Positions 9,826-63,914 of a DNA stretch of 64,000 bases are shown in pieces. Both the position numbers and the translations under genes were made by a program. How positions within the stretch are numbered: position 1 is the first letter of the stretch; every line of letters begins with the position of its first letter. The DNA comes from a virus (lineage: Duplodnaviria; Heunggongvirae; Uroviricota; Caudoviricetes). Location: positions 1 to 64,000 of IMG/VR virus record IMGVR_UViG_2630968876_000001. One strand, 5' to 3'. Under the pieces are notes generated by a model. It was not told where the DNA came from and searched no databases. It saw nothing but the letters and a program-made list of their open reading frames with translations.

Positions 9826-9858
9826 GATGGTAAGGAGTCTGTATTTTGCAGTGATCAC
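9826..9858 (-). promoter_or_regulatory. late-promoter-like conserved motif upstream of pacA, followed by two more 12-bp-spaced TGATCA hexamers
   Basis: ggtaaggagtctgtattttgcagTGATCAcaataaTGATCAc. The first half matches the GGTAAGGAGTYTGTAATTTGC family found upstream of five other minus-strand operons; ~45 bp from the pacA start. Confidence 0.4.
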
Positions 9859-9882
9859 AATAATGATCACGAAGCGCGCAAA

Positions 9883-9903
9883 CGCATCTGAATTTGTCAG
9901 ATG
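9883..9903. promoter_or_regulatory. palindromic operator-like site upstream of parM (candidate parC/ParR-binding or promoter operator)
   Basis: GCATCTGA-atttg-TCAGATGC: 8-bp inverted arms, ~75 bp upstream of the parM-like start. Confidence 0.35.
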
Positions 9904-9978
9904 CAGAGACACTTTTATAAAAAACTGTGTTATTTTTATGTCTCAATCGAAGTGCGAAATTAACCATTGGGTAAATAA

Positions 9979-11106
9979 ATGTCTAACAAGAAAGCAGTTT
10001 TAGTAGCAGTGGATGCTGGTTCCGGAAACGTGACTATCGCCTATGAGGAAAAAGGTCAGTGGGTCTCTCGTATCACGCCATCCCTCGTTGAAGTAGGCCA
10101 CCAGCAGTCTATTTCCAGCAACGCCTCCTCTATCTGGCTGACAGAAGGCGACTTTGGCAAAGAGACCGCATACACCGTCGTTAAAAAGGGCTTTACCGAC
10201 CTCTACGACACCTGCGACCCGGACTATCAGATCTCCGCGCCTCACCGCGTGCTGGTGCATGAATGCCTGAAACGCGCGGGTATCGTGGACTGCGACGTTA
10301 TTCTTGGTGAGACGCTGCCTATCGGGCAGTACTACAGCGGCAACGGCGTGATCAATCAGGCGCGCATTGATAAGAAAGTTGCCAGCCTCAAAAAGCCAGT
10401 ACGCAACTACAGCGACGACGTACAGCCAGCGCGCATTAAACACGTACAGGTATTCCCGGAAGCAATCCCGGCTATTCTGGCGGCTCAATCTGAGTTCCCG
10501 GAGCTGGAAGAAGAAGCGCAGACCATTCTGGTAGTGGATATTGGCCGCTTCACCTGTGATATCGCTATCGTGGATGAAGAACTGGTTCCAATCAAAAAGG
10601 CCAGCTTTGAGCATGGCATTCAGAAGATGATCAACCGCGTTCGCGTATTGCTGCAGGAGTTTGAAGTCACCTCTGGCCGCTCTTTTAATGCAGAAGAGAT
10701 CCCGCCAGGTGCAATCGACGACATTATCCGTCAGGGCTATATCGGCTCACGTCTGGAAGCAGCAAAAGCCAAGCGTATCGACGTCACCAGCGTAATTAAT
10801 CAGGCCGCAGGCGAGCTGGCAGCGGAAATCTGGCGCGACGTGCGCTCTCTGCTGCGTAACGCCATTGCGGTTGATGCAGTGCTGGTGGTAGGTGGCGGCG
10901 CTAACTATCTGGCTGGCCGTCAGGAAGGGCTGACCGACTTTACAGCGGGCTGGCATGATGTGGTCATGGTGCCGGAGAACCCGGAAGAGGCTAACGCACG
11001 CGGCGTATTCATTGCACTGATGGATGCAGAAGATGAATTGCGCGATATGGTAAAAGACGCCAGCAACGTCAGCGATATTACCAGTCGCGTCAGCGATAAA
11101 GGTTAA
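9979..11106 (+). CDS. parM: ParM/StbA-family actin-like plasmid segregation ATPase
   Basis: N-terminal phosphate-1 motif VLVAVDAGSGNVTIAY, phosphate-2 VDIGRFTCDIAIV, adenosine motif VLVVGGGANYLAG; 375 aa. Confidence 0.85.
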   Translation: MSNKKAVLVAVDAGSGNVTIAYEEKGQWVSRITPSLVEVGHQQSISSNASSIWLTEGDFGKETAYTVVKKGFTDLYDTCDPDYQISAPHRVLVHECLKRAGIVDCDVILGETLPIGQYYSGNGVINQARIDKKVASLKKPVRNYSDDVQPARIKHVQVFPEAIPAILAAQSEFPELEEEAQTILVVDIGRFTCDIAIVDEELVPIKKASFEHGIQKMINRVRVLLQEFEVTSGRSFNAEEIPPGAIDDIIRQGYIGSRLEAAKAKRIDVTSVINQAAGELAAEIWRDVRSLLRNAIAVDAVLVVGGGANYLAGRQEGLTDFTAGWHDVVMVPENPEEANARGVFIALMDAEDELRDMVKDASNVSDITSRVSDKG

Positions 11107-11108
11107 TC

Positions 11109-11690
11109 ATGAGTCAGGTATTAAGAATTGTAGGCCTGGAAGAAGATGGGCTTTTCGGTTCCGCCGTTTTAAAGTCATACAATGGTCTGGCAAGCCACAG
11201 CCATAAGCGTAACTATCTGGCGCGCATAGTGCGCAACGGGTACGCAGTGGATGAAATGGGGCTTAGCACCCTTATTGAGCTGATACAGACGACTGACGGC
11301 AAAAAGTTCATGAAGATGAACCAGCGCGACCGTATGAAGCGCCTGTTGAGCCTGATTAACGTCGTTATGTGTGAAGATGTACCGGAGCTGCCGGAGTCAG
11401 ACGTACAGCCTGCGCCTGCGCCAGTGGTAAAGGCCGCGCCAGCCCCTGCAGAGCCACCAGCTGCAGCCCCGGTCTCACAGCCGGAACCCGTGGCCACCGT
11501 AAGCGAGCCAGAGCCGGACCCGGTGCCACCAGCAGAGCCGGTAGCCGAAGCCAGTAAGCCTGAAGAGAAACCGTCTGCATCAGTTGCCCCTGACGCAGAT
11601 TCTGAAGGTGAAGCGAAGGTGTTTGGCGCAACGCGCAAAAAGTCGGGTAAAGGGCGCAGCCTGATAAACCCGGCAGGCGCGAAAAGCTGA
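11109..11690 (+). CDS. possible ParR-like adaptor protein with a PAPAP/PEP-rich C-terminal tail
   Basis: Starts 3 bp after the parM stop (ParMRC gene order). No motif recognised; proline/alanine/glutamate-rich low-complexity C-terminus. Confidence 0.35.
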   Translation: MSQVLRIVGLEEDGLFGSAVLKSYNGLASHSHKRNYLARIVRNGYAVDEMGLSTLIELIQTTDGKKFMKMNQRDRMKRLLSLINVVMCEDVPELPESDVQPAPAPVVKAAPAPAEPPAAAPVSQPEPVATVSEPEPDPVPPAEPVAEASKPEEKPSASVAPDADSEGEAKVFGATRKKSGKGRSLINPAGAKS

Positions 11691-11710
11691 TCCTGCCTTC
11701 TCCACCCCGT

Positions 11711-12118
11711 TCACATGAGCGGGGTGTTTTCTATCCTTCCCCGCATACACCTGTCCATTAGTTCCCTTGCCATCACGCATACAGAACGTAGCTCCATTTC
11801 CTTTGACTGGAGGCGGCGCTTCGTGGCGCTGGTAACAACCAGCGAATCGTAGTCAATGTCCGGGCGTCCGCGCGCTTTGAAGGTGTAGCCTTTTAACGCA
11901 TCCAGGCGGTACTGACGTGGATAAGCGTCAGGGTGTACGCAGCATTGCGCAAAAGGAGAGCGGACAAAAGAGCGCAGAATATTAGTGATGATACCGGGAT
12001 TGACTAATAAGTGCGGGTACTTTGCTTCCACCAGCCGGGTAACCTCTGCTACCGTCATATAATCACGATTGCGAACCAGCAGATCCGCCACCTCTATACT
12101 GCTCACCTTTTTGACCAT
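11711..12118 (-). CDS. hypothetical protein, 135 aa
   Basis: ORF with AT-rich upstream region containing tttaga motifs; no motif recognised. Confidence 0.4.
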   Translation of the reverse strand: MVKKVSSIEVADLLVRNRDYMTVAEVTRLVEAKYPHLLVNPGIITNILRSFVRSPFAQCCVHPDAYPRQYRLDALKGYTFKARGRPDIDYDSLVVTSATKRRLQSKEMELRSVCVMARELMDRCMRGRIENTPLM

Positions 12119-12434
12119 GTATCGCTCCGCTACGAAAACAATACATGCAATTCTAAATGATGTGAATTTTGCGTGGATTACAAAACGCGCATTTTAGAGT
12201 TTTCCCATTCAGATTTTCTTTGTGCTATGAATTTTTTACGTCTGGCTGGTTTAAGGTTGGTTAAGGTTAAGGGCTGTAATGAGGGATGGAAGCAGAGCGT
12301 AAATAGTGCTGTGCGGAGTGAATTATCTAAAATTAGTACCAAATAAAATTGAATTTTTCTACTTTGGGGTATGCGTTCCCTAAAGACTATTTTAGAAACC
12401 TGTATTCAGGGCTGGTTCAGCCAGCCCATCCAGA

Positions 12435-13411: not shown

Positions 13412-13414
13412 CGT

Positions 13415-13806: not shown

Positions 13807-13908
13807 TTGTGCTGGCCGGATTTGAACCGGCGACCTTTCGCTTGTCCCTTTAACCGCCCTGCAGGCCGAATAAAAGAGCGAACGCTGCTGCCGCTGAGCT
13901 ACAACACA
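13807..13908 (-). ncRNA. tRNA-like element #1 with a ~29-nt insertion where the anticodon loop should be
   Basis: Minus strand reads acceptor TGTGTTG, D-arm GCT-CAGCGGC-AGC, anticodon-stem strands TTCGC ... GCGAA (perfect 5 bp) enclosing 36 nt, variable loop AGGTC, T-arm GCCGG-TTCAAAT-CCGGC, acceptor CAGCACA-A. No encoded CCA. Confidence 0.4.
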
Positions 13909-15696: not shown

Positions 15697-15780
15697 TGGC
15701 AGTGACGGCTGGATTTGAACCAGCGACCTTCCGTACTCCTGAGTTAAAGCCGGACGCTCATTCCCCTGAGCTACATCACC
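15697..15780 (-). tRNA. tRNA-like element #2 (encoded CCA end; canonical D- and T-arms; non-canonical anticodon/variable region)
   Basis: Minus strand: GGTGATG-TA-GCTC-AGGGGAAT-GAGC-G-TCCGG-CTTTAAC-TCAGG-AGTACGGAAGGTC-GCTGG-TTCAAAT-CCAGC-CGTCACT-G-CCA. Read conventionally, the loop CTTTAAC would give anticodon UUA with a weak stem and a 13-nt variable region. Alternatively an enlarged 15-17-nt loop closed by TCCG/ACGGA. Confidence 0.4.
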
Positions 15781-17178: not shown

Positions 17179-18255
17179 TTAAGCGCACGCGCCGGGATAG
17201 CGAGCTCGGAGACCGATGATGCGCTTGTGGAGTCGTGGAAAGTCCAGCGCCAGGCGGGTCATGATGCGCTCATGCAGTTCATCGTTGATGGCCGTGTCCC
17301 ACATAGGGAGTAAATCAGGCAGGATGCGGAATACCGGATTGCCCCATATACCCGGCACCACGTCCATTGCCAGCATCATCGCCGTGCGGATCTGGTAGTG
17401 GAAATTTGCCGTCTCAATGGACACGTCACGGATGCCGTGAAATACGCTAAGCCCGAAGTGGTAATTGTAGATATAGCAGCCCACGTCGCCGCTGCCGTCC
17501 GGCAGCTGTAGCAGGAATTGCGCCACATCTTCCTGCCCGTCGTGAAACTCCACGCGCTCTTTGAGATTGTTATGCAGAGCCGTCAGTTTAATCAGCTCAT
17601 TAGCCGTCTCACCGCGCAGGCGACGCTCTTTACCCACTTCTTTATCTGCAATATTCAGCTTCTGCTGCAGTTCCTGTATCAGTGCGCTCTGCTTTTTGCG
17701 GTCGGCGCGGTGCTGAGAAATGGTTTTGTCGCGCTCCTGCAGATCTGCCGCCAGGCGTTCAGGATTCTTGCGGCGGTAGTGTGTAAATTCCTGATTCAGA
17801 GTGGTCAGCGCCAGCTGAGCGGTAACCAGCGCACCTGCGCTGCGATCGCGGGCGTTTTCAGCATTGATAGCGCGATTTTCGGCCTCACCTTCACGAATGC
17901 GGGCTTCCTGAATGGCTTCATCAGCGGCGTTCTTCGCCTCAAGGCGAATCTGAGCTATCTCTGCGGCCAGCACGGAATGCTGGTCCAGCTCCTGCTGTAC
18001 GTGCTCCAGCGCCTCTGCCAGCACGTTGTAGGTATCAGCTTCGTGGTTAAGGCGCAGGTTGATATCAATCTGCACCTGCTCCAGCGCGGACAGGCAGTTA
18101 TCCAGCAGGCGTTTTTCTAGATCGTCGAGTTTCAGGCGCTTGCGCATAGAACTCAGCTGGCCATAGGCCGTTACAAACGTCTGGTGCAGTACTTCATCGT
18201 CAACGGGGCATTCAGGAAGTTGCTGCAGCTGCTGGAGCACATTTTGAGAAGTCAT
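17179..18255 (-). CDS. coiled-coil protein with a C-terminal globular domain, 358 aa (antirepressor-like by position and size; function unproven)
   Basis: N-terminal ~220 aa strongly heptad/charged (QQLQQLPE..., AEIAQIRLEAKNAADEAIQEARIREGEAENR). Operator-like motif directly upstream. Size close to P1 Ant1. Confidence 0.5.
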   Translation of the reverse strand: MTSQNVLQQLQQLPECPVDDEVLHQTFVTAYGQLSSMRKRLKLDDLEKRLLDNCLSALEQVQIDINLRLNHEADTYNVLAEALEHVQQELDQHSVLAAEIAQIRLEAKNAADEAIQEARIREGEAENRAINAENARDRSAGALVTAQLALTTLNQEFTHYRRKNPERLAADLQERDKTISQHRADRKKQSALIQELQQKLNIADKEVGKERRLRGETANELIKLTALHNNLKERVEFHDGQEDVAQFLLQLPDGSGDVGCYIYNYHFGLSVFHGIRDVSIETANFHYQIRTAMMLAMDVVPGIWGNPVFRILPDLLPMWDTAINDELHERIMTRLALDFPRLHKRIIGLRARYPGACA

Positions 18256-27920: not shown

Positions 27921-27980
27921 TCATCCTTATCTACAGATTGCATAAAGCTAATACACTCTACATTCTAAATTGTTAATGTT

Positions 27981-29690
27981 TTGCAGAGGTATATTTTGGC
28001 AAAGAAAAATAAAACGCTTTCCGTATTGAGCGCGCTCAGGCAGGCATTCAGGGGCGCAGATGCTGACGCGCCTGAAAGTTTGCCGTGGAGTAACGGACAA
28101 AACGTCGTGGTGTCCCGTTCCGGGCTGGCTGCACTGGCGTATCAGGAAGGTAAGGCAGGTGAAATGACCACGGCCGGCGACAGCCTCTACCTCGGCGCAG
28201 AGCTGCCGCTGGACCGGCTGCAGCGTTACGCCATTCTTGAGGAAATGGCCAACAGCCCGACCTGCTCCGCCGCGCTGAATATCCACATTGGCCACGCGCT
28301 CGCGCCGGACAAAAAGACCGGGCTGGCGTTCTGCATTGCTCCGGTGGACCCGTCGGACAAAGAAGGCGCGGCGCGGGCAAAAGAGCTGCAGGATGATTTG
28401 GGCGCGATGATTAACAGACACCTGCCGTCACTGGCTATGACCATGGCGATTTTTGGCGTCGCTTATGTGCGTCCCTATGCCCGGACCGGCAGCGGGATCA
28501 CCAGCCTGGAAAACAGCTATTACTCGCTGCCCTACTTTGTGCAGGAATTTTATAAGGGCGATCAGCTGGTGGGCTTCGGCGGGGATTACGTGCTGTCACC
28601 CGATACGCATACCCGCACGCTTTCCTCGCCGTGGTCTCTGGTACCCATGAAAAACCCGTACTGGACGCCCACGCGTAACGTGCAGCCCATAACGTCCGGC
28701 AACCGGGGCTATTCGCTGCTGAGTGAAGAGGAGGATAAGGAAGTTGCGGAGACGCAGAACTACGGTACCAGCTTCCTCGCGCACGCTTATGAGCCGTTCC
28801 TCAACCTGACGGGTGCCCTGAATGCGCTGAAAGCCACGCGCTACAACGCTGCCAAAATTGACCGCCTGATTGCGCTCACCACCAACTCACTCGACCCGGT
28901 TGTGGGTGCCAACTACACCCGCACCGTATCGCAGACGCTTAAACGCCACGGCGAGGCGCTGCAGAAAAAGGCGGTGAACGGGAACACCATGCCAACCGTG
29001 ATGAACCATGTGATCCCGGTTATGGGGGATGGTAAAAACGGGATCACGATTGATACGCAGTCGATACCCGCGGACATTACCGGCATCGAGGACGTGATGT
29101 TTCACCTGCGCCAGCTGTGCGCCGCGCTCGGTATTGATTCAACGATGCTGGGCTGGGCGGATCAGATGGCAGGCGGGCTGGGGGAAGGCGGCTGGATTCA
29201 GACGGCCATACAGGCGGCGCTGCGGGCGCAGTGGCTGCGCCAGGGTGCGCAGGAGATGATTTACCGGCTCATAGATATTCACCTGGCGTTCAAATACGGC
29301 AAGGTTTACCCGGTGAATGACCGGCCCTACGTTGTACAGTTTAACTCCATGAACACGGCGATTCAGGAAGAAGAAAGCCGTGAAATGGACGCGCGCGCCA
29401 ACTTCATTACGCTCATGGTGCAGGTTATGGACGCGCTGCAGGCCAACAACAAGCTGGCGGAGAATGACACGTTCATGCGCTACCTGTTCAGCGATCAGCT
29501 GAAGATGGACGGCGGAACGCTGGATAAGATGCTGGCGGAGTTCAGCAAAAGCCGTGACAAGGCCGATGCGCAGGAGGATGACGCCGGCAGCATGATGAAC
29601 GAGTCAGCGCCAAAAGGCGACGATCCGGCCAGCTGGACGCATGAGGAGCTGGTGGCGTTTGCCCGCTATGTTGTCAGGCCGGAAAGTTAA
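27981..29690 (+). CDS. putative portal protein (Prt-like), 569 aa; start codon uncertain (TTG at 27981 in the ORF track)
   Basis: Divergently transcribed from the darB-like gene, as prt is adjacent to darB in P1. Size matches. No motif verifiable by eye. Confidence 0.45.
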   Translation: MQRYILAKKNKTLSVLSALRQAFRGADADAPESLPWSNGQNVVVSRSGLAALAYQEGKAGEMTTAGDSLYLGAELPLDRLQRYAILEEMANSPTCSAALNIHIGHALAPDKKTGLAFCIAPVDPSDKEGAARAKELQDDLGAMINRHLPSLAMTMAIFGVAYVRPYARTGSGITSLENSYYSLPYFVQEFYKGDQLVGFGGDYVLSPDTHTRTLSSPWSLVPMKNPYWTPTRNVQPITSGNRGYSLLSEEEDKEVAETQNYGTSFLAHAYEPFLNLTGALNALKATRYNAAKIDRLIALTTNSLDPVVGANYTRTVSQTLKRHGEALQKKAVNGNTMPTVMNHVIPVMGDGKNGITIDTQSIPADITGIEDVMFHLRQLCAALGIDSTMLGWADQMAGGLGEGGWIQTAIQAALRAQWLRQGAQEMIYRLIDIHLAFKYGKVYPVNDRPYVVQFNSMNTAIQEEESREMDARANFITLMVQVMDALQANNKLAENDTFMRYLFSDQLKMDGGTLDKMLAEFSKSRDKADAQEDDAGSMMNESAPKGDDPASWTHEELVAFARYVVRPES

Positions 29691-29822: not shown

Positions 29823-30131
29823 TTAACTGTTATCCAGATGCTTCACCGGTCTGAATATCTTTTTTTCGGCAGGTTTTTTAGGTTTCTTCGGGGCATTAAG
29901 CACCAGGTATTCATTCTGCCCTTCTTGTTCGTCCGGTCTGGTAATACAGAACGGACAAACCTTAACGCCCGAAAAATGTATTCCGGCTACGGTCAGCGCC
30001 TGATTCAGCGTATAGCAGCTGCCGATAAAGGTGCGCTCCTCAATGGACGGCAGCTGCGGGCAGTCCACGCGGTGCAGGAGCAACCCGGACGGGAAATGGT
30101 CGCTGACATAAAACTTCATAGCCTTGTACAT
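29823..30131 (-). CDS. small Cys-containing (possible Zn-ribbon) protein, 102 aa
   Basis: CPQ...CPFC pairs. Confidence 0.35.
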   Translation of the reverse strand: MYKAMKFYVSDHFPSGLLLHRVDCPQLPSIEERTFIGSCYTLNQALTVAGIHFSGVKVCPFCITRPDEQEGQNEYLVLNAPKKPKKPAEKKIFRPVKHLDNS

Positions 30132-30931: not shown

Positions 30932-31324
30932 GGTGTGCTCCCTGTGCTTTGAGAAGCGTCACGACAGGAGGTTCCAATCTCCGGGTGGTGACGTTGACAG
31001 GGTTGGAACTACCGGTGCACAAGAAAACCGGCCTACCCGAAGGTAGCCCCGCCAACGCCACCATAGATACGCCCGGAATTTTCCGGACGTGGTAGCGCCG
31101 AAGGCACTGTGTGCCAGCTCTCATGCTTTTTCAGGGTTCCAATCCCGGCCACTGTTTTGCAGCGGCGCGCACACTATATCCGCCGCGCTGATAAATTCAA
31201 TATGTCTAATGTGAAATTATCCACTGGTCATTAGATCCACGCATGAATCAAGAAAAGTTACCTACGCAAATTACAACCTTCCTACCATCAGTCCGCGCAG
31301 GCAATCGCCAGCGCTGCCGCCGCT

Positions 31325-34048: not shown

Positions 34049-34084
34049 TGTGATACCACTCTGTAATGATTGAGAGCGGGACTG

Positions 34085-34104
34085 TATGGAGTTTGTAATT
34101 TGCG
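34085..34104 (-). promoter_or_regulatory. late-promoter-like conserved motif (GGAGTTTGTAATTTGC) ~42 bp upstream of the endolysin gene
   Basis: One of six copies of the same element at similar distance from minus-strand operon starts. Confidence 0.4.
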
Positions 34105-34140
34105 GTGGGTGAAAAAAGGCCGCATTGCGCGGCCTCCGGA

Positions 34141-37355: not shown

Positions 37356-37399
37356 TGTGATCCCGGTAATAAAAAACCCCGCCGAAACGGGGTTGCTGA

Positions 37400-41315: not shown

Positions 41316-41359
41316 ATACCCCCCTTTGGTACCTGGTTATCAGGTGGCGAGAGGGTAAG

Positions 41360-41380
41360 CAGTCTGTAATTTAGAGAGGT
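41360..41380 (-). promoter_or_regulatory. late-promoter-like motif variant (gcagtCTGTAATTTAgag) ~50 bp upstream of the holin gene
   Basis: Degenerate member of the GGAGTTTGTAATTTGC family. Confidence 0.3.
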
Positions 41381-41435
41381 AAAGAAAAACAGCGCCCGGA
41401 GGCGCTGTTTTTAGGTGTGACGTGTAATTCGGCTA

Positions 41436-42032: not shown

Positions 42033-45000
42033 TAAGCAGCTCTCACAATGTAGTTAAATGCGATGTTTCGTGGTCTCACCCTGAAACCCGTGCCTCCTCC
42101 TAATCCTGTAGGTACAAGTGTGGTTCCTGGATAATGCGCAGACGTTGAGGCCAGCGACTCCCTGCCATCATGATCCTGCGTATAATAGTTAGATGAATAA
42201 TTATCCAGAACTGTTCCAACCGGACGCGTAACGAGGGTGAAGTTACCGTCTGTTCGTTTTGCAATGCCCCAGTTTTCAACCAGTGTTGCGGCCTGCCAGG
42301 TCATAACCTGACGTCCGTTGTCCACACCACGCCCGTTATCCGCACCACGAATAAATTCGCCGCGCAAATCAGGAAGTGTCAGGTTCGGGTAGGCTCTTGC
42401 CAGTTCTGGATAATCTGACGCACTGAACTTTGCGCCATTGCAGAGTAGCCAGCCGTAGGGGATTTCATCAGATGGCCACGGTAAAGGTATGCCAGCAGGA
42501 AGGTTCAGCGCTTCTAACGTCGGTTTATATCCTTCGTGATAAACGCGCTGATTGTCATACTGCAAAGAACCATCGTTTACTAACCGGAGAAACTTTTTGG
42601 TAGTCGCATTCCCCATATAAACATCATTCGCTGCACACCCAAAATTGAGCAATGACGTTATTCCTGGCGCTTTGACCGTTAACTCACTGCTGAACTGAAC
42701 CGGCCCTGTAAAAAGTGCGCTGCTGCGTACCACAAGACCGATATCGCTATCCGGAAGGCTGGTGTCTGTGCTGCCGATGATTGTCTGGCCGCGCAGATAG
42801 TTTGGCGCGGTTCCCTGCAGGTACAGGTTCCATCGGTTCACGCCGGGGCGCTCATTCAGACGCCCGTCAAAAGCGGCAGCTGACAGAATGTTCTCGCTGG
42901 CTTTATCGTAGGCGCGGAACGAAGAAAAATTGCTAATTTTCGTAGTGCTGTTAACGGTACCGGAATTAGCCCAGAACTCTACCGCGTCATTCAGGGTATG
43001 TGCTGTTTTCCCGTCGCCAAACGTTACCTCTGTGCCAAAGCCTATAGCGCGCTCAGTCGCGTCCGCGCCAATATTCGCATACGCCATCGCCACCAGCTGC
43101 GTGGTGCCGGTCAGATTGCCATTGCCGGCGACTCCATTACCCAGCGTCAGCAGCCGGGAAGCGGACGCGCCAGCCCCCAGGCCGACAGAAAGCTGGCCTC
43201 TGGAACCAAAAGCAGCACAATACTTGCTCCACGTTTTCCCGTTATCCCGGTTATCTGCCTCCAGCAGCAGGTTAGTGCCGTAGGTTCGCCAGCGATATGA
43301 CGGGTTATTTGTAGTGCGATCAATGAGCGCCAGCGCAGGCGAAAAGCTGTTAACGGTAATGCCCTGGCTGCCGTCACCATTACTGCCGTTCACCACCATC
43401 GCCGCACCGGTAAGATCGCCAATGGCAGTTGAGCCTTTCGCCAGGACGGTCACCGGCCCGGTAAAGTCAGCGCCGGCCGCAACAGTCAGGCTACCGGCGA
43501 CTGAAGCCCCGCCGCGAAACTTCATTGTCGAGACGTTGATATCGCCCGTGCCGTCGGCAGAGAGGCTGATCCATGTATTGGGTATCGAATTGCCCCAGGT
43601 CACGGTATCGGTGTTATCGACTGACTGACCTAAATACCAGTGCAGCGTGTCGTCTGACTTCCGTCCGCGAAGATAATAGGCTTTATCTTTGGTTGAGGGC
43701 TTCAGCTGCAGCGCAACCTGATCAGCTGAAAAGAGGCCTGCCCCATCAGAACGCAGACCGCCGCCGCCGACTAATGAAAGTCCGCCAGATCCCTGCAGCG
43801 TGGCGGTACCGTCGCCGCTGTTGAGGACAAAGCGCGCCGTGGTCGCGCCGGAACGCGCGCGCGCATCGAGCGCAAGCTGTCCGCCGCCGTGCGTCATGTT
43901 CGTGATAGTGATACTGCCGAGCACCCTTCCGCCCCAGGTATCGGTCGTCGTGGACGCCAGACGCCCGAAGATGTTCATCACGTCGGTGTCATACGCCGTC
44001 GGCGTATCTTCCGGCTGATCGGTACGCACAAACGTCATGACCGGCGTTGACGGCTCAGAGCGGATCACACCGATACGGAATCCGGCCTGAATCTGTGAAT
44101 TAACTTCCAGATTCTTTGCCAGCCTTACCTTTGCCGTATTGATATCTGTCAGGCTGTTCAGGCTGGTAATGTCGTTGTTCCAGCCCGCCCTTGCAGCGCC
44201 CAGGTTCAGCAGATCGGTCAGCGTCATGCTGGCCGTGTCCATCTGTTTACGCCAGCCGTTTGCATCAGCGCCGCTTGTCAGGCCATGCCACGCCCAGGAG
44301 CCGTTACCGCCGCCTGCGGTGCGGATATACACCGTGCCGTTTTGCGCGGCCAGCAGCTGCACCAGCGACGCGCCGGCATCATAGCTGCGGCGCATGTTAA
44401 TCAGCTGCCCGCTCAGCGCCAGTGGCGCTTTGCCAAGTTCAACCGGACCGTCCGTAAAGCTGCCGCTCAGCGTCCAGAAGGCACTCAGGCGGGTGACGAC
44501 TATGTTGGACAGTGAAGTGATTTTGCTGTCCAGCACGGCAGACGCTGCGCCCAGGCCAAACGCCCCCACGGCCATCAGCGCGCCGGCCGTATTATCAGTC
44601 GGGGATTGCTGGACGTTCGCCAGCGCGGCGGTACCAAGCCCAAGATGTTTACGGGCTTCCGGAACGTCCGGCAGATCCCCCAGGTTTTGAGCGGCCTTCA
44701 GCTGCTTGTCATTGGTTACCTGGTCGAGTTCGATGTTCTGACGAAAAAGGGCTTTATCCTCAATATCCGAGCCGTTGTTGGCGCTGACCATGTTGTTATC
44801 GATCAAGGCCTTCAGGATTTTCAGCCCCTTCAGGTTGGCGGCGATCAGTTCGTCGTCGCTGTCGTTCACCGAGTCGAGCGTGATACCTACCTGCCGGTTG
44901 ATGCGGTAGTTCGTCACGATCATTGCCTGCGTCACCTGCGTGGTGCCGGTTGGCACAAGCACGCGGCAAAGCTCCAGCTGGTTCGGCGCCAGCGCAACCG

Positions 45001-45412
45001 ACAGATCCTGCGCAAAGACGCGCGCGGCCTTAACGGCGGAATCGCGGTTAACCTGCTCTGTCACAGTGCCGACTTTGTAGTTCGCCTCCAGCACAATGCG
45101 CGTGGTTTTGCCCGCCACCACAGGCAGCGTGAGATCCGCCAGATGCTGTACCGTGATCTGGTGCGCGTTCACGTCAATGGAGGCGGCGCCCTGCCCGTCC
45201 TCCGCCCCTTTTGAGGTGACGACAACATTCAGCCCGGTCCCGGCAACCGGCGAGAAGCCCAGGTAAAAGCCGGGGCGCACCACACCTTTTAACTTCCGGT
45301 TAAGCGCGGAACTGGTGTAGGTCTCCAGGTACTGCATATCCGCCGACAGCGGCGCGGAGCCATACGCATAGCCTGACATAACGCCTACGTCGGTAATTTC
45401 GTTATCAGTCAT
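42032..45412 (-). CDS. tail fiber protein (P1 S / Mu S / P2 H type), 1126 aa, with C-terminal phage tail-collar-type receptor-binding region
   Basis: Conserved N-terminal MTDNEITDVGVMSGYAYGSAPLSADMQYLETYTSSALNRKLKGVVRPGFY. C-terminal ...IPYGWLLCNGAKFSASDYPELARAYPNLTLPDLRGEFIRGADNGRGVDNGR matches the tail-fiber collar motif. Confidence 0.88.
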   Translation of the reverse strand: MTDNEITDVGVMSGYAYGSAPLSADMQYLETYTSSALNRKLKGVVRPGFYLGFSPVAGTGLNVVVTSKGAEDGQGAASIDVNAHQITVQHLADLTLPVVAGKTTRIVLEANYKVGTVTEQVNRDSAVKAARVFAQDLSVALAPNQLELCRVLVPTGTTQVTQAMIVTNYRINRQVGITLDSVNDSDDELIAANLKGLKILKALIDNNMVSANNGSDIEDKALFRQNIELDQVTNDKQLKAAQNLGDLPDVPEARKHLGLGTAALANVQQSPTDNTAGALMAVGAFGLGAASAVLDSKITSLSNIVVTRLSAFWTLSGSFTDGPVELGKAPLALSGQLINMRRSYDAGASLVQLLAAQNGTVYIRTAGGGNGSWAWHGLTSGADANGWRKQMDTASMTLTDLLNLGAARAGWNNDITSLNSLTDINTAKVRLAKNLEVNSQIQAGFRIGVIRSEPSTPVMTFVRTDQPEDTPTAYDTDVMNIFGRLASTTTDTWGGRVLGSITITNMTHGGGQLALDARARSGATTARFVLNSGDGTATLQGSGGLSLVGGGGLRSDGAGLFSADQVALQLKPSTKDKAYYLRGRKSDDTLHWYLGQSVDNTDTVTWGNSIPNTWISLSADGTGDINVSTMKFRGGASVAGSLTVAAGADFTGPVTVLAKGSTAIGDLTGAAMVVNGSNGDGSQGITVNSFSPALALIDRTTNNPSYRWRTYGTNLLLEADNRDNGKTWSKYCAAFGSRGQLSVGLGAGASASRLLTLGNGVAGNGNLTGTTQLVAMAYANIGADATERAIGFGTEVTFGDGKTAHTLNDAVEFWANSGTVNSTTKISNFSSFRAYDKASENILSAAAFDGRLNERPGVNRWNLYLQGTAPNYLRGQTIIGSTDTSLPDSDIGLVVRSSALFTGPVQFSSELTVKAPGITSLLNFGCAANDVYMGNATTKKFLRLVNDGSLQYDNQRVYHEGYKPTLEALNLPAGIPLPWPSDEIPYGWLLCNGAKFSASDYPELARAYPNLTLPDLRGEFIRGADNGRGVDNGRQVMTWQAATLVENWGIAKRTDGNFTLVTRPVGTVLDNYSSNYYTQDHDGRESLASTSAHYPGTTLVPTGLGGGTGFRVRPRNIAFNYIVRAA

Positions 45413-45417
45413 GTGCG

Positions 45418-45861
45418 TTACGCCGTTTTCTGTTCAATGGTAACCAGCAGGTTATAGGCCTTGCCGCGAAATACCGTGTCCTGCTGCAGACAAAGCACGG
45501 CAAAGGCGTTGCCGTCTGCATCCACCAGCGTCAGTGTATTAAGGTCATAGGCCTTGTCAGCGGCAAGCTCTGACTCGTTAAGCTGGATAGAGACAGAGAT
45601 TTCCGCGCCCGTGCTGGTCAGGATCAGCGGCGTCTCAGTAAACTTGCCGGACAGGTTGGCATTGCTGAAGGTGGAAGGAATATCCGCAATGTTCCAGCCG
45701 CCGGCAGCATTACTGGTGACCAGCGCAGACTTGCCCCAGTAGGCTTTGACCATCTGGAAGCGGTTTCCCTTGCCGATGGATGATTCAGCGCGACGGATGT
45801 AGTAGTAGTCCAGCAGCTTCGCCTTAAACAGCTTGCTGCTGACGGAGATGGTATCAGCCAT
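45418..45861 (-). CDS. tail-fiber-associated structural protein (gpR-like position), 147 aa
   Basis: Immediately upstream of the tail fiber gene with a late-motif promoter upstream. Confidence 0.4.
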   Translation of the reverse strand: MADTISVSSKLFKAKLLDYYYIRRAESSIGKGNRFQMVKAYWGKSALVTSNAAGGWNIADIPSTFSNANLSGKFTETPLILTSTGAEISVSIQLNESELAADKAYDLNTLTLVDADGNAFAVLCLQQDTVFRGKAYNLLVTIEQKTA

Positions 45862-45897
45862 AAAAAAGCCTCTCAGAGTTAAGAGGCCAGAGGGTAA

Positions 45898-45918
45898 GGA
45901 GTTTGTAAAATCCGCAGG
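45898..45918 (-). promoter_or_regulatory. late-promoter-like motif (GGAGTTTGTAAAATCCGC) ~40 bp upstream of the tail-fiber operon, next to a hairpin (45869-45891)
   Basis: Motif family member; hairpin gcctct-cagagtta-agaggc just upstream suggests a terminator/promoter junction. Confidence 0.35.
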
Positions 45919-45922
45919 TCAA

Positions 45923-47014
45923 CTATGAGACAAATTGCTCGTAAAAAAGCATTGTAACCGTGCTGGTGTCGCTGCCGTCCGCGGGCAGCGCCAGAATAAA
46001 CTCCGGCGTCCCATCGAAGGGAAACGCCACTGTTTCACTGCTGCCGTCGTCACGCGTGACCGTAACGCCCTGATAGTCACCCTTCAGGATAGCGATGTAC
46101 TCCACGCCTTCCTCCGTAAATAACCGGGCGCGGCTGTCACCGCCGGCGCTGGTAATAACAACCGGCGCCGGAGCGGCGTCCGGTTTGTTCTGGTAGTCAT
46201 TCCACCAGGCATCAGCAGGTAGCGCGTCATAGCGCTTAACGTAGCGCGCTTCTCTGACGGGCTCAGGAGACATGACATGCAGCTGTTGTGACGTCATGTG
46301 CAGCGTCTTTATTTCCGATTGCAGATCGGCGTAGGACATTTTGGCCCGGTAGTCGATACCGGCACTAATCAGCCGCACGCGCTCTGAATCAGCGGTAAGT
46401 TCAAACGAGATAAACAGTGCCACGCCGTCAAACACAATATGCAGCGGCAGCAGCGGCTCAATGATCTGGTCAAACTGGCTCAGCAGTTTGTTAACCGCCT
46501 CCGTCTGCTCCACGTAGCCATAGCGCTCGTACAATTCGTTAAGCGCCACCGAAATTTGGGCGCGAGACGTCAGAAAGAACTCGCCATACTGCTCCTGCGC
46601 AACCTCCACGCCCTCTTTTGTGGTGAAAAATGAGCCGTAAGGTGCTTTCTCCTGGTCCACCGGTGCATAAAGCGGTTGCCAGGTCACGGGCAGGTTATCG
46701 AACTCGCGCCAGAACGTTGATGTGATCGGCTTATCGGTACCCTTAAAATGCACTTCGTCCAGGCGCTGCGCCAGCAAAACCGGCCTGCTGGTGTCCGTGG
46801 TTTCCGCCACGACAAAAAAGCGGCCATACTCGCTCATGCGCAGCGTCAGATCGTCTTTGTCCATCGTGAAATAGCTTTTGCGGTTGGTAATGCGTTCAAG
46901 CGTTGGCTCTACCGCCTGCTCAAATACTGACTGCAGGATATTTGCAAAGCCCGACCACAGCTCTGACGTGCTTTTCTCTTTAGTGAGCCGGTCTTTTACC
47001 CAGTTTCTGATCAT
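45923..47014 (-). CDS. baseplate-associated protein, 363 aa
   Basis: Position between the baseplate J-like gene and the tail fibre operon. Confidence 0.4.
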   Translation of the reverse strand: MIRNWVKDRLTKEKSTSELWSGFANILQSVFEQAVEPTLERITNRKSYFTMDKDDLTLRMSEYGRFFVVAETTDTSRPVLLAQRLDEVHFKGTDKPITSTFWREFDNLPVTWQPLYAPVDQEKAPYGSFFTTKEGVEVAQEQYGEFFLTSRAQISVALNELYERYGYVEQTEAVNKLLSQFDQIIEPLLPLHIVFDGVALFISFELTADSERVRLISAGIDYRAKMSYADLQSEIKTLHMTSQQLHVMSPEPVREARYVKRYDALPADAWWNDYQNKPDAAPAPVVITSAGGDSRARLFTEEGVEYIAILKGDYQGVTVTRDDGSSETVAFPFDGTPEFILALPADGSDTSTVTMLFYEQFVS

Positions 47015-53544: not shown

Positions 53545-54267
53545 TCAGAATTTAATGAGGTTTGATACGGATGATTGAACCTGGTTTGTAATTCCTCCGG
53601 TTAATCCTTTTGCCAGTCCGTTCAGCGCGCCGCCGGCACTGGTGTACTTCACAAAAGTCACAGGGAAGGTGGCAAACTCGCCCACGGCATCGCGCGCGCG
53701 GGAGATCTCGCCAATCGTGGTAATGAAACCCTTCATTTCTTCTTCCAGTGAGGCCTGACCATCCTGCGTCACCCGGTAAATCCGGATGTTTAACAGGTAG
53801 GCAGGAGGGAGGTTAAAGGTGCCGTCGCCGTTGGATATGCGCGCCCGCTTCTCCTTGAATTTCTGCAGCAGTTCGCCGCTTTCGTTGTCGCGGAGCGTCA
53901 TGGTGACAGAGCCCGCCGTAACGTGGGTTGGCTTCACGAACTCCACGCCGCCAATCAGCTTGCTCTCGGTCTCCACGTTGTTAGCGCTGTAGGTGATATC
54001 TTTCACGTACATATCCACGCGCGAGAAGCCGTCTATTTCGATGTTCCATTGCCAGCCCTGCGCGTAGCGAATGCGCATCGCCATTTCCAGAATGGCTTTA
54101 GCACTGGAGAGCTCAGGCGGCAGGCCTGCATAAGACGCGCCACCGCCGCCGCTCATGTTTGAGGAGGCACGCGCCAGAATGTTTGATATCAGGCTACTGC
54201 CAGCCTGTCTGGCCGTACTGGAAGCCAGGCCTTTGATGTTCCCGGCCAGCCCGTCAAAAAAGCTCAT
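53545..54267 (-). CDS. tail structural protein, 240 aa
   Basis: In the tail gene block. Confidence 0.4.
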   Translation of the reverse strand: MSFFDGLAGNIKGLASSTARQAGSSLISNILARASSNMSGGGGASYAGLPPELSSAKAILEMAMRIRYAQGWQWNIEIDGFSRVDMYVKDITYSANNVETESKLIGGVEFVKPTHVTAGSVTMTLRDNESGELLQKFKEKRARISNGDGTFNLPPAYLLNIRIYRVTQDGQASLEEEMKGFITTIGEISRARDAVGEFATFPVTFVKYTSAGGALNGLAKGLTGGITNQVQSSVSNLIKF

Positions 54268-58306: not shown

Positions 58307-60046
58307 TTAGCTGGCAGTACCGGTGGTGACAGCTTCAGGTGCGGTTTCGCCCTGAATTTTCTTGCCGGTCAGCATGTCGTAAGCGCCTTCTTTCGCATTG
58401 GTCAGCGTCAGCTTGGCGAAGTAATTCTCACCATTGCGCGGGTGCAGCTCGTTGAGGGAAGAACCCCAAAGCGTGGTGCGGTTGACCAGAGACGGGTTGG
58501 TTTCGTGGACATACGGGATTGCCGGAACGGCGTCACCGGCGATCAGGCCAGCATCACCGATGGAATCACCACGGCCATAAAACAGAATGTCCTCTTTGCT
58601 CAGCGCGACGCCGTTGGCCACAAACTGATCGCAGATAGCGGTCGGTACTTCGTAGATCGGATAGATGCCAAACAGGGTGCCGATGCGCTGAATGTACGGC
58701 GACTGGACAAAGTTAGGATCGGCCTGGAACACGTTAGCCGGAAGGCTTTTCAGGAAGTTTGCCGCCTCGCCACCTGCAAAACCGCCACGGATGCCAGCCT
58801 TACGGGTACGGTTCACCATGTCAGTGCTCAGCTGCGTAATGGCATGCTTCAGCAGCGTTACCCACGATTCGTAGGTCTGGCCTTCCGGCAGCGCTACGTC
58901 AAACTCACGATTGTAAACGGTGTGGAATGCCATAGTGCGCAGACGCATCATGTCCTGCTCATGGCTCAGCCAGTTACGCATTGCAGTAAACTGCGTGGAC
59001 GACAGGTTGATGCCAAATTCACGGCTCAGATCGGACGCAGACATCACGGTATGCTCTGACGCAATAACGAACTGCGACGGCTTGATGGTGAACTCACGCA
59101 TTGACTGGTTGATAACCGGGATCAGGCCTGGCGCTTTTTCAACGTTGATCTCGACCTGTGCGGCCAGCTCAGTACCTTTAGCCGGCGCATCGGTAAAGGT
59201 CACAGCAATGGTGCCTTTGTCGTAATCGACTTTACAGGTAGCCTGGAACTGGTTGCCTTTGACGTCTTTGTCGGAGAAAAACAGGTTGCCGTCAGTATCA
59301 TCGACTTTACTCGGACGACGGTTGATCAGCAGCTTGGTGCGGCCAGCACGGATCGGCATATCCGCATTCTCAATCGCCTTAATGCTGAAGGTGAAGGTTT
59401 TCTTGGTGCCGTCCGGCTGCGCTGCAGCAGGGAACAGGTACAGGCGTTTCATCTGCGAGTAAACCGCCGCAGACTGCATATGCATTTCATCGCCCTTCTG
59501 GAAGGTGCCAAAGCTGGTACCGGCCACGTTCATCAGCTCGTAAATCTTCGCTTCGTCGCGCTCGCACGGAACAAAGGTACATGCGTCGCTGGTGGCAGCG
59601 CCCAGCACCGCAGGCAGGATCAGCGCGGCAAACTGCGCCTGACGCATTACGCCGTCAGAGGTGCGCATATCAGCAGCCACGGACTCAAACATCGCTTTGC
59701 CGTTGCCTTCATGCTTTTCAGCCGCTGATTCGATCATCAGGTTTTCAAGCGCGCGGCTGGCGTTCGCCAGCTGATCAGCTGGTGGGTAATGACCGTTACG
59801 CTCTTTGTACTCGATCATGCTTGACGCCCACGCGGTGCCTACCAGACGGCAAAACTCCGGGTTAACGCCTTCAAACATCGGATCACGGCCAGCCGCCTCG
59901 CCAATACTGACGGACATAGACTGGCGGTCAGAAATCATTGAGCCATCTGCGTTGCGCTGTGCGTCAACGGTGAAAGCCATAACGCGCGATGCACGCTGCA
60001 TAACGTCCTGCTCGCGCTGGCGAGCCGGGGAAATATCTTTACTCAC
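58307..60046 (-). CDS. major capsid protein candidate (P1 gp23-like size), 579 aa
   Basis: Size ~62 kDa. Adjacent to the sheath gene, as genes 22/23 are in P1. Late-motif promoter upstream. Confidence 0.5.
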   Translation of the reverse strand: MSKDISPARQREQDVMQRASRVMAFTVDAQRNADGSMISDRQSMSVSIGEAAGRDPMFEGVNPEFCRLVGTAWASSMIEYKERNGHYPPADQLANASRALENLMIESAAEKHEGNGKAMFESVAADMRTSDGVMRQAQFAALILPAVLGAATSDACTFVPCERDEAKIYELMNVAGTSFGTFQKGDEMHMQSAAVYSQMKRLYLFPAAAQPDGTKKTFTFSIKAIENADMPIRAGRTKLLINRRPSKVDDTDGNLFFSDKDVKGNQFQATCKVDYDKGTIAVTFTDAPAKGTELAAQVEINVEKAPGLIPVINQSMREFTIKPSQFVIASEHTVMSASDLSREFGINLSSTQFTAMRNWLSHEQDMMRLRTMAFHTVYNREFDVALPEGQTYESWVTLLKHAITQLSTDMVNRTRKAGIRGGFAGGEAANFLKSLPANVFQADPNFVQSPYIQRIGTLFGIYPIYEVPTAICDQFVANGVALSKEDILFYGRGDSIGDAGLIAGDAVPAIPYVHETNPSLVNRTTLWGSSLNELHPRNGENYFAKLTLTNAKEGAYDMLTGKKIQGETAPEAVTTGTAS

Positions 60047-60104
60047 AAGTAGACCCTTTTTTCAGGGCGCGGCTGCGAGGGAACTTTTGACGGGGCAAAT
60101 TTAG

Positions 60105-60120
60105 GCGGTTTGTAATTTGC
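60105..60120 (-). promoter_or_regulatory. late-promoter-like motif (GGCGGTTTGTAATTTGC) ~60 bp upstream of the capsid gene
   Basis: Motif family member. Confidence 0.4.
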
Positions 60121-61338: not shown

Positions 61339-61358
61339 GCAGCCCCGAAGGGCTACTT

Positions 61359-61998: not shown

Positions 61999-62000
61999 AG

Positions 62001-62768
62001 TTACTCCTCGTTGAGCGCAGCCAGAACGGCTGCGGGCATAATGGCGCTGACGGCCTGACCCATAACCGGATCGCCGCTCAGGCCGGACGTAAGCGCGATG
62101 GCCACCGCATCCGACATGGCTTTTTTTGCCGTGCTGGTGGACGCGCTGACCTGATCCGCCAGGCGGGCAAGTGCAGACGTGCTGCCGGGAAGGGGCAACA
62201 GCAGTGCATCGAGCGCGCTGGTTGCCTCGCTCAGCGCGGCTGTTTCCTCTTCGGTGAACGCTGGCGCGATTGCGGCCCCTCCCGTTGCGCCCGGTGCTGC
62301 AGCAGCGCCTGCTTTTGCGTTAATTGCCCCCATTGCCCCAGAGAGCGCGGAGAGCGATACGGCCTGCAGCAGATCGCCCACTGCGCCTGTAATGGCTTTA
62401 TCCCCCATTGCGGCCACCAGCGCGAACGCCGGAGCCGGAGAGAGACGATTACCCTTTACGTGACACTCCCATCCGGTTTTCAGCTGCAGCAGCTCAGACG
62501 GGCTGCTGAAGGGCTTAACCGCTGCCACGAATCCGGCAGCAGCGCCTGCTGCAGTGTCCAGGCTCGCCGCATAGCCTGACAGCTTCCCGGTATACCCGGA
62601 GACCTCAGCCGGATAGGTGACGTCCGGCAGCAGCAGCGCCCTGACGGATGCGGCCAGCTGCTCAGCGCGTGCCTGCGCCCCCTCGCACACTACAACCGGC
62701 GCTGGCGTAACCATGCCGGAGGCGGAGAGGGCAGCAAATGCGTTGATCTGTTTGTCGTTGTCGAGCAT
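62001..62768 (-). CDS. Ala/Gly-rich protein, 255 aa
   Basis: ORF between the PAAR-like gene and the spanins. Confidence 0.4.
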   Translation of the reverse strand: MLDNDKQINAFAALSASGMVTPAPVVVCEGAQARAEQLAASVRALLLPDVTYPAEVSGYTGKLSGYAASLDTAAGAAAGFVAAVKPFSSPSELLQLKTGWECHVKGNRLSPAPAFALVAAMGDKAITGAVGDLLQAVSLSALSGAMGAINAKAGAAAAPGATGGAAIAPAFTEEETAALSEATSALDALLLPLPGSTSALARLADQVSASTSTAKKAMSDAVAIALTSGLSGDPVMGQAVSAIMPAAVLAALNEE

Positions 62769-63052
62769 TACTTAACCTCAAACCCGGCTTCGCCCGTGGC
62801 GACCACCGACCCGCACGAAACCGGATCGTTGACGCACACAATGCCTTTGCCGTTGATGGTGAACCACGGACGACCCGTAACCGCCGTGCCGTTGTGAGTA
62901 CTGCTGCCGTCGGTGTGATCCGGAAACAGCTTGCCGTCCACCAGCACGGGCTTGCCGTTGATGGTGAGCCCCGCGTCAGCCTCAGCGGTCTGACGCGAGG
63001 GGAAGCCATCGTGTCCGGAACAAACCGAGTCCAGCGTGCCGGCGGCAGGCAT
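62768..63052 (-). CDS. PAAR-repeat-like spike-tip protein, 94 aa
   Basis: Repeated Gly/Cys-containing beta-strand motifs: SVCSGHDGFP, LTINGKPVLVDGK, FTINGKGIVCVNDPVSCGSVVATG. Confidence 0.45.
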   Translation of the reverse strand: MPAAGTLDSVCSGHDGFPSRQTAEADAGLTINGKPVLVDGKLFPDHTDGSSTHNGTAVTGRPWFTINGKGIVCVNDPVSCGSVVATGEAGFEVK

Positions 63053-63079
63053 CAGACTGCCCCGGCGCCGGAGCGCGCT

Positions 63080-63277
63080 TTATTCGTCATCAGGTATCAG
63101 CTCCAGATCCCCGCGGGTGTAGTTAAGCGGGCAGGTGTAGTACGGGTGTTTCAGCACATAGCGCTGCCCGTTCTCCAGCCAGTCCACCCGGTCAACTACG
63201 CACACTTCACCGTTAAACAGGTTGCCGCGTATGCATACGCGGGAGCCTTTGCGGATCGGCTTCTCAGCTGTGACCAT
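63080..63277 (-). CDS. small protein, 65 aa
   Basis: ORF overlapping the stop of the upstream gene. Confidence 0.3.
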   Translation of the reverse strand: MVTAEKPIRKGSRVCIRGNLFNGEVCVVDRVDWLENGQRYVLKHPYYTCPLNYTRGDLELIPDDE

Positions 63278-63855
63278 CAGGATTCCAGCAGCTCGTAGAA
63301 GTCATCAGGGATATCGCTGAACGACATGAACATACCCAGCCAGACGGCGCGGCTTGCGTCGGTGATATAGCGCGACATTTTGACGGTAGACAGCACGTTG
63401 CTGACCCATTTGGTCTGCGTGCGCTGGTCAAGCGGTGACATTTCATCCCACTTATCCGTAGCCATTTCGCGTGCCAGGTTAAGGGCGTACATGGTGGCCC
63501 ACATTACCGGCATCAGATCGACGGTTTCCGGCTCGTCCGGCAGCTCTGCCTGCGCTTCCAGATAGAACTCATACGCGACCTGGCAGATGTAGGTTGGCGT
63601 CAGCATGTAGCGCGATTCCGGGCGCATGGCCATCAGGCGCACGCGGGTATCTTCTGCCGTGGCGTTTGCCATGATCTGCTCAATCATGATGTTGCGTGTG
63701 GCGCGCTGCGACGGGGTAAAGCGCCAGTAAGGCGTTTCCAGCAGCACGCGGGTTTCAGGGGAGTAGTTATATTCGTACTGGAACTGCGGATCTTCGCGCA
63801 GCGCCATGCTCAGGTTGTGGAAAAGCTCAAATGCGGTAGGCTTACGGTTGCTCAT
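63277..63855 (-). CDS. hypothetical protein, 192 aa, first gene of a late operon
   Basis: Late-motif 38 bp upstream of its start. Confidence 0.45.
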   Translation of the reverse strand: MSNRKPTAFELFHNLSMALREDPQFQYEYNYSPETRVLLETPYWRFTPSQRATRNIMIEQIMANATAEDTRVRLMAMRPESRYMLTPTYICQVAYEFYLEAQAELPDEPETVDLMPVMWATMYALNLAREMATDKWDEMSPLDQRTQTKWVSNVLSTVKMSRYITDASRAVWLGMFMSFSDIPDDFYELLES

Positions 63856-63892
63856 AATTTACTCTGTTGAGTTAAAGGAAGCGGCACCTTAA

Positions 63893-63914
63893 CCAGTTTG
63901 TAATTTGCAGGCGG
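63893..63914 (-). promoter_or_regulatory. late-promoter-like motif (CCAGTTTGTAATTTGCAGGCGG)
   Basis: Motif family member 38 bp upstream of the 63855 start. Confidence 0.4.

Follow-up and report, generated by a model that had tools for sequence, protein, structure and literature searches.

The DNA analysed here, hereafter the window, covers positions 1 to 64,000 of the IMG/VR record IMGVR_UViG_2630968876_000001 (64,000 nucleotides, nt). It is 100% identical to the Pantoea sp. PSNIH1 plasmid pPSP-26e (CP009882.1, 87,166 bp, circular), which has the genes of a P1-like myovirus plasmid prophage: terminase, portal, head-processing protein, capsid, sheath, tube, baseplate and tail fibres are encoded together with a holin, a lysozyme, a DarB-like helicase, a Cre-like recombinase and a C4 antisense RNA. 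A repeated motif of this element most likely corresponds to the late promoters of a P1/D6-like phage-plasmid, activated by its own Lpa homologue, a reading to which we assign a probability of about 85% on the basis of sequence comparison. The analysis itself shows the motif and its fixed spacing, its restriction to positions before late operons, its conservation in relatives, the Lpa gene and a co-variation between the box of the motif and Lpa. Lpa-dependent late promoters are a kind of system already known; the box sequence differs from that of P1 and is unannotated in the GenBank records examined, including the two records of phage D6 (MF356679 and AY753669), neither of which carries annotated late promoters. 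A full-text literature search, the coverage of which did not extend to the D6 and P1 genome papers, returned no paper linking D6-like elements and late promoters.

The initial annotation had reported six copies of the motif, all on the minus strand, and all six are present and align without gaps in gene orientation as GCAAATTACAAAC-N4-TAnnnT. The conserved unit reaches further 3′ than had been described, to a TAnnnT hexamer at fixed spacing. The full element in pPSP-26e reads GC-AAATTACAAAC-N4-TAnnnT: the box is centred at -22 and followed, after 4 bp, by a -10 hexamer, and a -35 is absent. The box, (GC)AAATTACAAAC, is an asymmetric sequence of 11-13 bp extending from about -29 to -17, devoid of dyad symmetry, and the conserved block ends exactly 4 bp upstream of TAnnnT at every site.

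This motif is far more frequent than expected by chance. Indeed, the 16-mer GGAGTTTGTAATTTGC, found once as an exact copy in the window (34088-34103), occurs seven times when up to three mismatches are tolerated (versus 0.53 expected from shuffled sequences), and the pattern AWTACARNCNNNNTANNNT has seven matches in the window versus 0.06 expected. Over the whole plasmid, the regular expression TACA[AG]AC.{4}TA...T is matched in only seven places, every one on the minus strand. A position weight matrix (PWM; 27-mer) trained on the seven minus-strand sites was then scanned over both strands of the 87,166-bp plasmid, where it retrieved nine sites scoring between 21.7 and 40.9, the next best match scoring 6.6. 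The six sites described at first are thus real, but the window holds eight, two of which lie on the plus strand (613-635 and 31266-31288) and were absent from the training set of the PWM. The ninth site (plasmid 74715-74737) is located outside the window, before the mat/tail operon. The hexamer has the form TAnnnT in 8/8 window sites and 9/9 plasmid sites.

The placement of these sites is as constrained as their sequence. Each of the eight window sites lies between genes and has the orientation of the gene that follows, an arrangement with a chance of approximately 0.059 per site, i.e. about 1.5e-10 for eight out of eight and 8.8e-12 for the nine plasmid sites. The end of the -10 hexamer is found 29-69 nt from the start codon at all sites; measured from the 3′ end of the box, the distance is 39-61 nt, close to the 38-60 bp first given. 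Seven of the eight precede terminase, endolysin, holin, tail-fibre, capsid/sheath, head-processing or PAAR/spanin operons, the exception being 613-635. Nor is the motif equally frequent within coding regions: the PWM sites are intergenic, and the near-match at 35552-35567, which lies inside a coding region and lacks a -10, was discarded with a PWM score of only 5.1. Additional copies of TTACAAAC between 76.6 and 78.5 kb of the plasmid were also rejected as late sites, being parts of palindromic iterons that lack a -10. This unannotated stretch, outside the window, displays about 20 such iterons, TGTTT(AT/GC/AC)AAACA, and is probably the plasmid replication origin.

The organization of these elements is that of P1 late promoters, in which, following the annotation of GenBank AF234172, a 9-bp ‘-22 region’ is followed by 4 bp and a 6-bp -10 (AAGTGACTT-N4-TAnnnT). 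The likeness to P1 architecture had been proposed from the window alone, and it stands: the spacing is identical, a -35 is missing, late genes lie downstream and a Lpa-family gene is present. The further suggestion that an activator site replaces the -35 has to be amended. There is indeed no -35, as information content does not exceed 0.43 bit between -36 and -30 in 60 aligned family sites (described below), and none of the seven matches of a sigma-70 consensus scan of 30000-47000 overlaps a site. The box, however, occupies -27 to -17, i.e. the spacer region, and is not physically at -35.

A dedicated late activator had been predicted to be encoded outside the window or elsewhere in it; a gene for such a predicted activator exists, and it is located inside the window (11711-12118, minus strand). 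The lpa (gene 10) homologue sought by the initial annotation is recognized there both by Pfam PF25716 and by PHROG 1704 (‘Lpa-like transcriptional activator’, E=1e-44), and a tblastn search of the plasmid with P1 Lpa retrieved this single homologue (24% identity, E=3e-9). The predicted protein is 40% identical to the Lpa of phage D6. An AlphaFold2 model, computed from a 12-sequence alignment, is of low confidence (mean predicted local distance difference test score, pLDDT, of 53); its better N-terminal part contains three helices followed by a beta hairpin, in a winged-helix-like order. Residues approximately 41-52 (GIITNILRSFVR) form the candidate recognition helix (helix 3), a hint drawn from the model. 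The best Foldseek matches, all non-significant (E=0.57-2), were winged-helix domains of the Fur, PerR and Pex type, and no match emerged when PDB sequences were searched with a profile of the Lpa alignment.

The same element recurs in related genomes. In PLSDB, the relatives of pPSP-26e are Pantoea plasmids at approximately 81% identity and, more distantly, Leclercia and Citrobacter plasmids; among the deposited phages searched, no close relative of the window was found. Five complete elements were compared with pPSP-26e: Pantoea eucalypti pEuc3, Leclercia pE1_003, a Citrobacter freundii plasmid, Enterobacter hormaechei p60214CZ_1 and phage D6. All five carry the box family rCAAAt(T/C/A)ACA(A/G)AC-N4-TAnnnT before orthologous late genes (holin, R, capsid, mat, endolysin, pacA, pmgB, bplB, darB, prt, portal and PAAR/upfC across the set), and this placement is kept despite differences in gene order and strand among elements. 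The family alignment gathers 60 sites from the six elements, in which the most informative positions are -27 to -16, -12, -11 and -7; the ACA core of the box is 97-98% conserved, T at -12 reaches 87%, A at -11 98% and T at -7 100%. Between pPSP-26e and pEuc3, the box is 94% and the TA..T 100% identical, versus 62% and 76% for the 30-nt flanks. By the definition of D6-supercluster late promoters adopted here, pPSP-26e belongs to this family, with the box before orthologous late operons and a Lpa helix 3 of the type TN(I/V)xR. PWMs of 19-mers at a fixed threshold were too lineage-specific for a clean classification of the D6 and Enterobacter sites.

The best evidence that Lpa reads the box comes from the joint variation of the two partners, as three classes of box track three classes of the predicted helix 3. 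In the P1/Serratia class, boxes of the form AA(G/C)T(G/C)ACTT go with a helix 3 D(V/I)Y(L/I)RLK. A P1-like plasmid of Serratia marcescens (NZ_OW849140.1) has AACTCACTT-TCGT-TAATAT before its capsid gene and AAGTCACTT-TTGC-TAGTCT before its holin gene; its Lpa is about equidistant from P1 Lpa (30% identity) and the D6-group proteins (23-27%), and yet has the P1-like helix 3 motif. In the D6/Pantoea class, boxes of the form AAATyACArAC are accompanied by x(V/I)(T/S)N(I/V)xR in six of six elements. The Lpa family alignment contains a third helix class, xIS(G/F/Y/S)xVR, represented by the 92-kb IMG/VR contig UViG_2890906962_000004 (helix 3 QISSMVRNF), in which the capsid, PAAR, R and pacA sites, together with two further ones, have the form GC-AAATCTCTAAC-N4-TAnnnT (AAATAGCGAAC for pacA). 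In these boxes, skeleton and spacing are unchanged, but TCT or GCG stands in place of the ACA core. A collection-wide scan for the DNA pattern of this third class was too unspecific, and a Xenorhabdus megaplasmid locus with a P1-class Lpa has too few late operons to define a box.

These comparisons suggest that helix 3 of Lpa sets the specificity of the box. We would give even odds to a broader proposal, namely that the Lpa family diversified into at least three activator/box specificity pairs (AAsTsACTT with YxRLK in P1/Serratia, AAATyACArAC with TNxxR in D6/Pantoea and AAATCTCTAAC with SSMVR in an uncultured IMG/VR lineage), all with the -22 spacing. Should these pairs prove unable to cross-activate, a P1-like and a D6-like plasmid prophage sharing a cell would not trigger each other's late genes.

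What is reported for P1 provides the frame for a mechanism. PMC10695390 counts 11 late promoters in P1 and identifies the 9-bp repeat that they share as the site bound by Lpa; P1 late genes require Lpa (PMC8198154). A passage of PMC1891329, citing Hansen et al. 2003, presents P1 Lpa as an activator that binds DNA sequence-specifically and is thought to act via SspA, a host protein associated with RNA polymerase. By analogy, the lifting of prophage repression in pPSP-26e would lead to synthesis of the Lpa homologue, which would bind the -22 boxes through its winged-helix-like N-terminal domain and, probably with host SspA, let the sigma-70 holoenzyme start at promoters having only a -10. Eight or nine operons would then fire at once, covering packaging (pacAB), lysis (endolysin, holin), head (capsid, pro), tail and tail fibres.

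Several observations weigh against this scheme. Not every late-type gene is covered, as the portal gene and darB have only degenerate candidate sites in pPSP-26e. With approximately three of nine positions shared, homology between the DNA elements of pPSP-26e and P1 is not demonstrable from their sequences. The co-variation is built on three classes, the third consisting of one contig and six sites, and the Lpa model is weak, with no significant match in the Foldseek search of the PDB. Lpa binding, SspA dependence, start sites and late timing are what we infer for pPSP-26e and the other D6-type elements.

Three other explanations were considered. The sites could be promoters whose box is read by another phage regulator or by a host factor, the Lpa homologue acting elsewhere. 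The binding of Lpa to the box is indeed a prediction, its structural model is the weak one described above, and the pPSP-26e box is unlike the one read by P1 Lpa. However, the core of the box shifts with helix 3 of Lpa in three classes, against a constant spacing and skeleton, each motif-bearing element has a Lpa gene, and Lpa belongs to a very small family (1.84 billion representatives yield 16 clusters at 50% identity), so that we consider this explanation very improbable.

The box could also be a repressor operator over ordinary sigma-70 promoters, the genes being under negative control and switched on by loss of the repressor. It overlaps the core promoter, as many operators do, and P1-family prophages use many dispersed operators. 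Yet these promoters have no -35 and a weak -10, in which only T, A and the final T are conserved; their unaided sigma-70 activity should therefore be poor. Furthermore, the sites occur only before late-function operons, whereas another motif, TTTAGAAT, often found as inverted pairs before early-type genes including lpa, is a better operator candidate. Repression at the box is, in our opinion, very improbable. Finally, a role as a recombination, packaging or other DNA site between operons, which the intergenic and dispersed distribution of the repeat might evoke, is hardly credible in view of the fixed distance to the TAnnnT hexamer, a strand that is always that of the downstream gene (on both strands), a constant distance to the start codon and a position before orthologous genes that is kept in elements with rearranged gene order.

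The motif TTTAGAAT bears on the control of lpa itself. It is present 15 times in the plasmid (approximately five expected, a rough estimate that was not computed), in addition to one TTAGATT, with copies in the window at 12150-12156, 27962-27968, 18296/18327, 5500, 4151, 32415 and 20266, and in the plasmid at 69212/69222 and 76247/76257. The copies look mostly intergenic, some being arranged as inverted pairs (ATTCTAAA-N8-TTTAGAAT); they are found before lpa, darB and pmgS as well as in the c1-cre region. These copies are candidate operators or -10 elements of a C1-like repressor regulon. The copy upstream of lpa may be a C1-like repressor operator, an early -10 or both, and we infer that the motif could be part of the operator of the C1-like repressor encoded at 5805-6893, as Olpa is in P1. 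P1-type C1 operators (ATTGCTCTAATAAATTT), when sought in the plasmid, were absent.

The coordinates of the individual sites and of lpa are given in table 1; for the six sites first reported, they are those of the 23-mer from -29 to -7.

Table 1. Predicted late promoter sites, degenerate candidates and lpa region in the window (sequences in gene orientation).
Feature	Position	Strand	Sequence	Remarks
Predicted late promoter, pacA-pacB (terminase)	9827..9849	-	GCAAAATACAGAC-TCCT-TACCAT	-10 ends 33 nt before ATG 9793; pacA, PHROG 1711 terminase
Predicted late promoter, endolysin gene (34048-33557)	34081..34103	-	GCAAATTACAAAC-TCCA-TACAGT	endolysin, PHROG 90
Predicted late promoter, holin-lydB-hdf-darA-ddrA-ddrB operon	41352..41374	-	CTAAATTACAGAC-TGCT-TACCCT	holin, PHROG 1527
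Predicted late promoter, R-S-U tail-fibre operon	45891..45913	-	GGATTTTACAAAC-TCCT-TACCCT	R-like gene, PHROG 2032
Predicted late promoter, ~14-kb capsid-sheath-tube-baseplate operon (60046 down to 45923)	60098..60120	-	GCAAATTACAAAC-CGCC-TAAATT	GenBank: capsid protein, tail sheath protein
Predicted late promoter, open reading frame (ORF) 63855-63277 (192 aa, function unassigned)	63886..63908	-	GCAAATTACAAAC-TGGT-TAAGGT	
Predicted late promoter, head-processing (pro-like) gene	31266..31288	+	GCAAATTACAACC-TTCC-TACCAT	ATG 31358; PWM score 21.7
Predicted late promoter, 143-aa ORF 665-1096 (function unassigned)	613..635	+	TTAAATTACAAGC-CGCT-TAACCT	ATG 665; PWM score 22.1
Ambiguous degenerate site before darB	27962..27984	-	GCAAAACATTAAC-AATT-TAGAAT	outside the 25 best PWM matches; overlaps a TTTAGAAT motif
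Decayed late promoter (probable) before pmgB-like gene	53575..53597	-	GGAATTACAAAC-CAGG-TTCAAT	within 3′ end of tail-tube gene
lpa homologue, 135 aa, predicted late-promoter activator	11711..12118	-		Pfam PF25716 BPP1_LPA, E=1e-29, 104 bits versus cut-off 35
Region upstream of lpa	12150..12178	-	GCAAAATTCACATCATTTAGAAT	holds a TTTAGAAT motif; not a good late box

Some of these sites call for comment. The endolysin promoter site is 100% conserved in pEuc3 despite a diverged leader, and a GC-rich hairpin followed by a T run lies just upstream of it. The ORF at 63855-63277 precedes genes for a PAAR protein, an upfB-like product and a Rz-like spanin. The site at 613-635 lies 29 nt before its ATG and has an orthologous site in pEuc3 (position 88765, minus strand). 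Clear late boxes exist at the darB position in Leclercia and Citrobacter. The probable decayed site at 53575-53597, whose -10 hexamer has lost the A at position 2, has as its counterpart an intact pmgB promoter in Leclercia, Citrobacter and D6.

Other features were noticed around these sites. Two TGATCA palindromes (Dam GATC sites) are found directly upstream of the pacA box, at approximately 9852-9875 on the minus strand, and at the same place in the pEuc3, Leclercia and Citrobacter relatives; expression of the packaging genes could be under Dam-sensitive control. On the minus strand, the R leader (45867-45888) contains a 9-pair stem and then a T run just before the ATG, and the capsid leader (60046-60091) contains GTCAAAAG...GCGCCC-loop-GGGC, conserved in pEuc3, D6, Leclercia and Citrobacter. 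Recurrent hairpins in mRNA leaders, perceived by eye, were rejected, as folding from assumed start sites gave non-significant z-scores (-1.55 to +0.85). The immI-like region, marked by a C4 antisense RNA (30981-31068, minus strand; Rfam RF01695, 85 bits), adjoins the plus-strand site at 31266-31288.

Elsewhere in the window, a transfer RNA (tRNA) gene at 15697-15780 (minus strand; Rfam tRNA score 50 bits) has, according to ARAGORN, a TTA anticodon (‘tRNA-Stop’, ochre-suppressor-like), and a second Rfam tRNA match of 102 nt (13807-13908, minus strand) was not called by ARAGORN. A PmgS-like head-morphogenesis protein (PHROG 1660) is encoded at 17179-18255 on the minus strand; its apparent counterparts in pEuc3, Leclercia and Citrobacter, judged by size and gene position, are labelled ‘RNA polymerase alpha C-terminal domain-containing’ in RefSeq. 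The 95,580-bp record CP060164.1, deposited as Acinetobacter venetianus, is 100% identical across a 16-kb query from the window, which reflects either an unexpected host range or a misassigned or contaminated record. Window positions equal pPSP-26e plasmid positions minus 70.

If correct, our reading provides a late-transcription map for a poorly annotated family of phage-plasmids, of which approximately 130 D6-type members are found in PLSDB, many from clinical Enterobacterales. It would mean that the architecture of P1 late promoters has been conserved across the whole P1/D6 supercluster while the recognition sequence was replaced. The co-variation of box core and helix 3 offers a concrete means of testing an old mechanism that is understood only in part, in which an activator binds at -22 and works with SspA. 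If several specificity pairs exist, this natural specificity series could map which Lpa residues read which bases, and supply candidate orthogonal promoter/activator pairs.

Among known systems, the middle promoters of T4 are alike in that a phage activator box substitutes for the -35 function and the sigma-70 -10 is kept. In T4, a MotA box lies at -30 and the co-activator AsiA remodels region 4 of sigma. T4 differs in the position of the box (-30, not -22), in its need for AsiA and in its unrelated proteins; general Pfam and PHROG scans of the window proteins turned up no MotA or AsiA homologue, no search aimed at these two proteins having been made.

Phage D6 (MF356679) has the same box family, AAAT(C/A)ACA(A/C)AC-N4-TAnnnT, before lydA, R, pmgB, capsid, mat, gp26, gp7, darB, prt and upfC. 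At position -23, the Pantoea box has T where the D6 boxes have C or A, and in D6 lpa is fused to pacA, for which there is no separate late promoter.

With respect to P1, the differences concern the sequence that is read and the protein that would read it. The pPSP-26e box (AAATTACAAAC) is asymmetric and 11-13 bp long, whereas that of P1 (AAGTGACTT) is a 9-bp palindrome. The P1 box is absent from the window (AAGTGACTTNNNNTANNNT at two mismatches or fewer: one match versus 2.15 expected), and a P1 PWM at 13 bits or more has no match in pPSP-26e versus 14 in P1. The pPSP-26e Lpa is 23-24% identical to P1 Lpa, with a different helix 3, and, unlike in P1, a ParM/StbA partition module lies between lpa and pacA. 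P1 itself carries a sequence that resembles a D6-type late box, GGAAATCACAAAGTACATACCGT (31571-31593, minus strand), 38 nt before lydC, where no promoter is annotated; it could be a remnant of exchange with a D6-type phage or a chance resemblance. P1 late promoters include LPs, LPsit, LPdar, LPlyz, LP23, LP26, LPpac, LPmat and LPpro, the last of these preceding prt-pro, whereas the corresponding pPSP-26e site precedes pro alone. In both elements, a box centred at -22 is separated by a 4-bp spacer from a TAnnnT -10, with no -35, and a Lpa-family protein is encoded. The number of copies is also alike (about 9-11 per genome), as is their placement before packaging, lysis, head and tail operons, and the orthologous operons with sites in P1 and pPSP-26e comprise pacA, lyz, the lydA/dar operon, R/S, gene 23 and mat.

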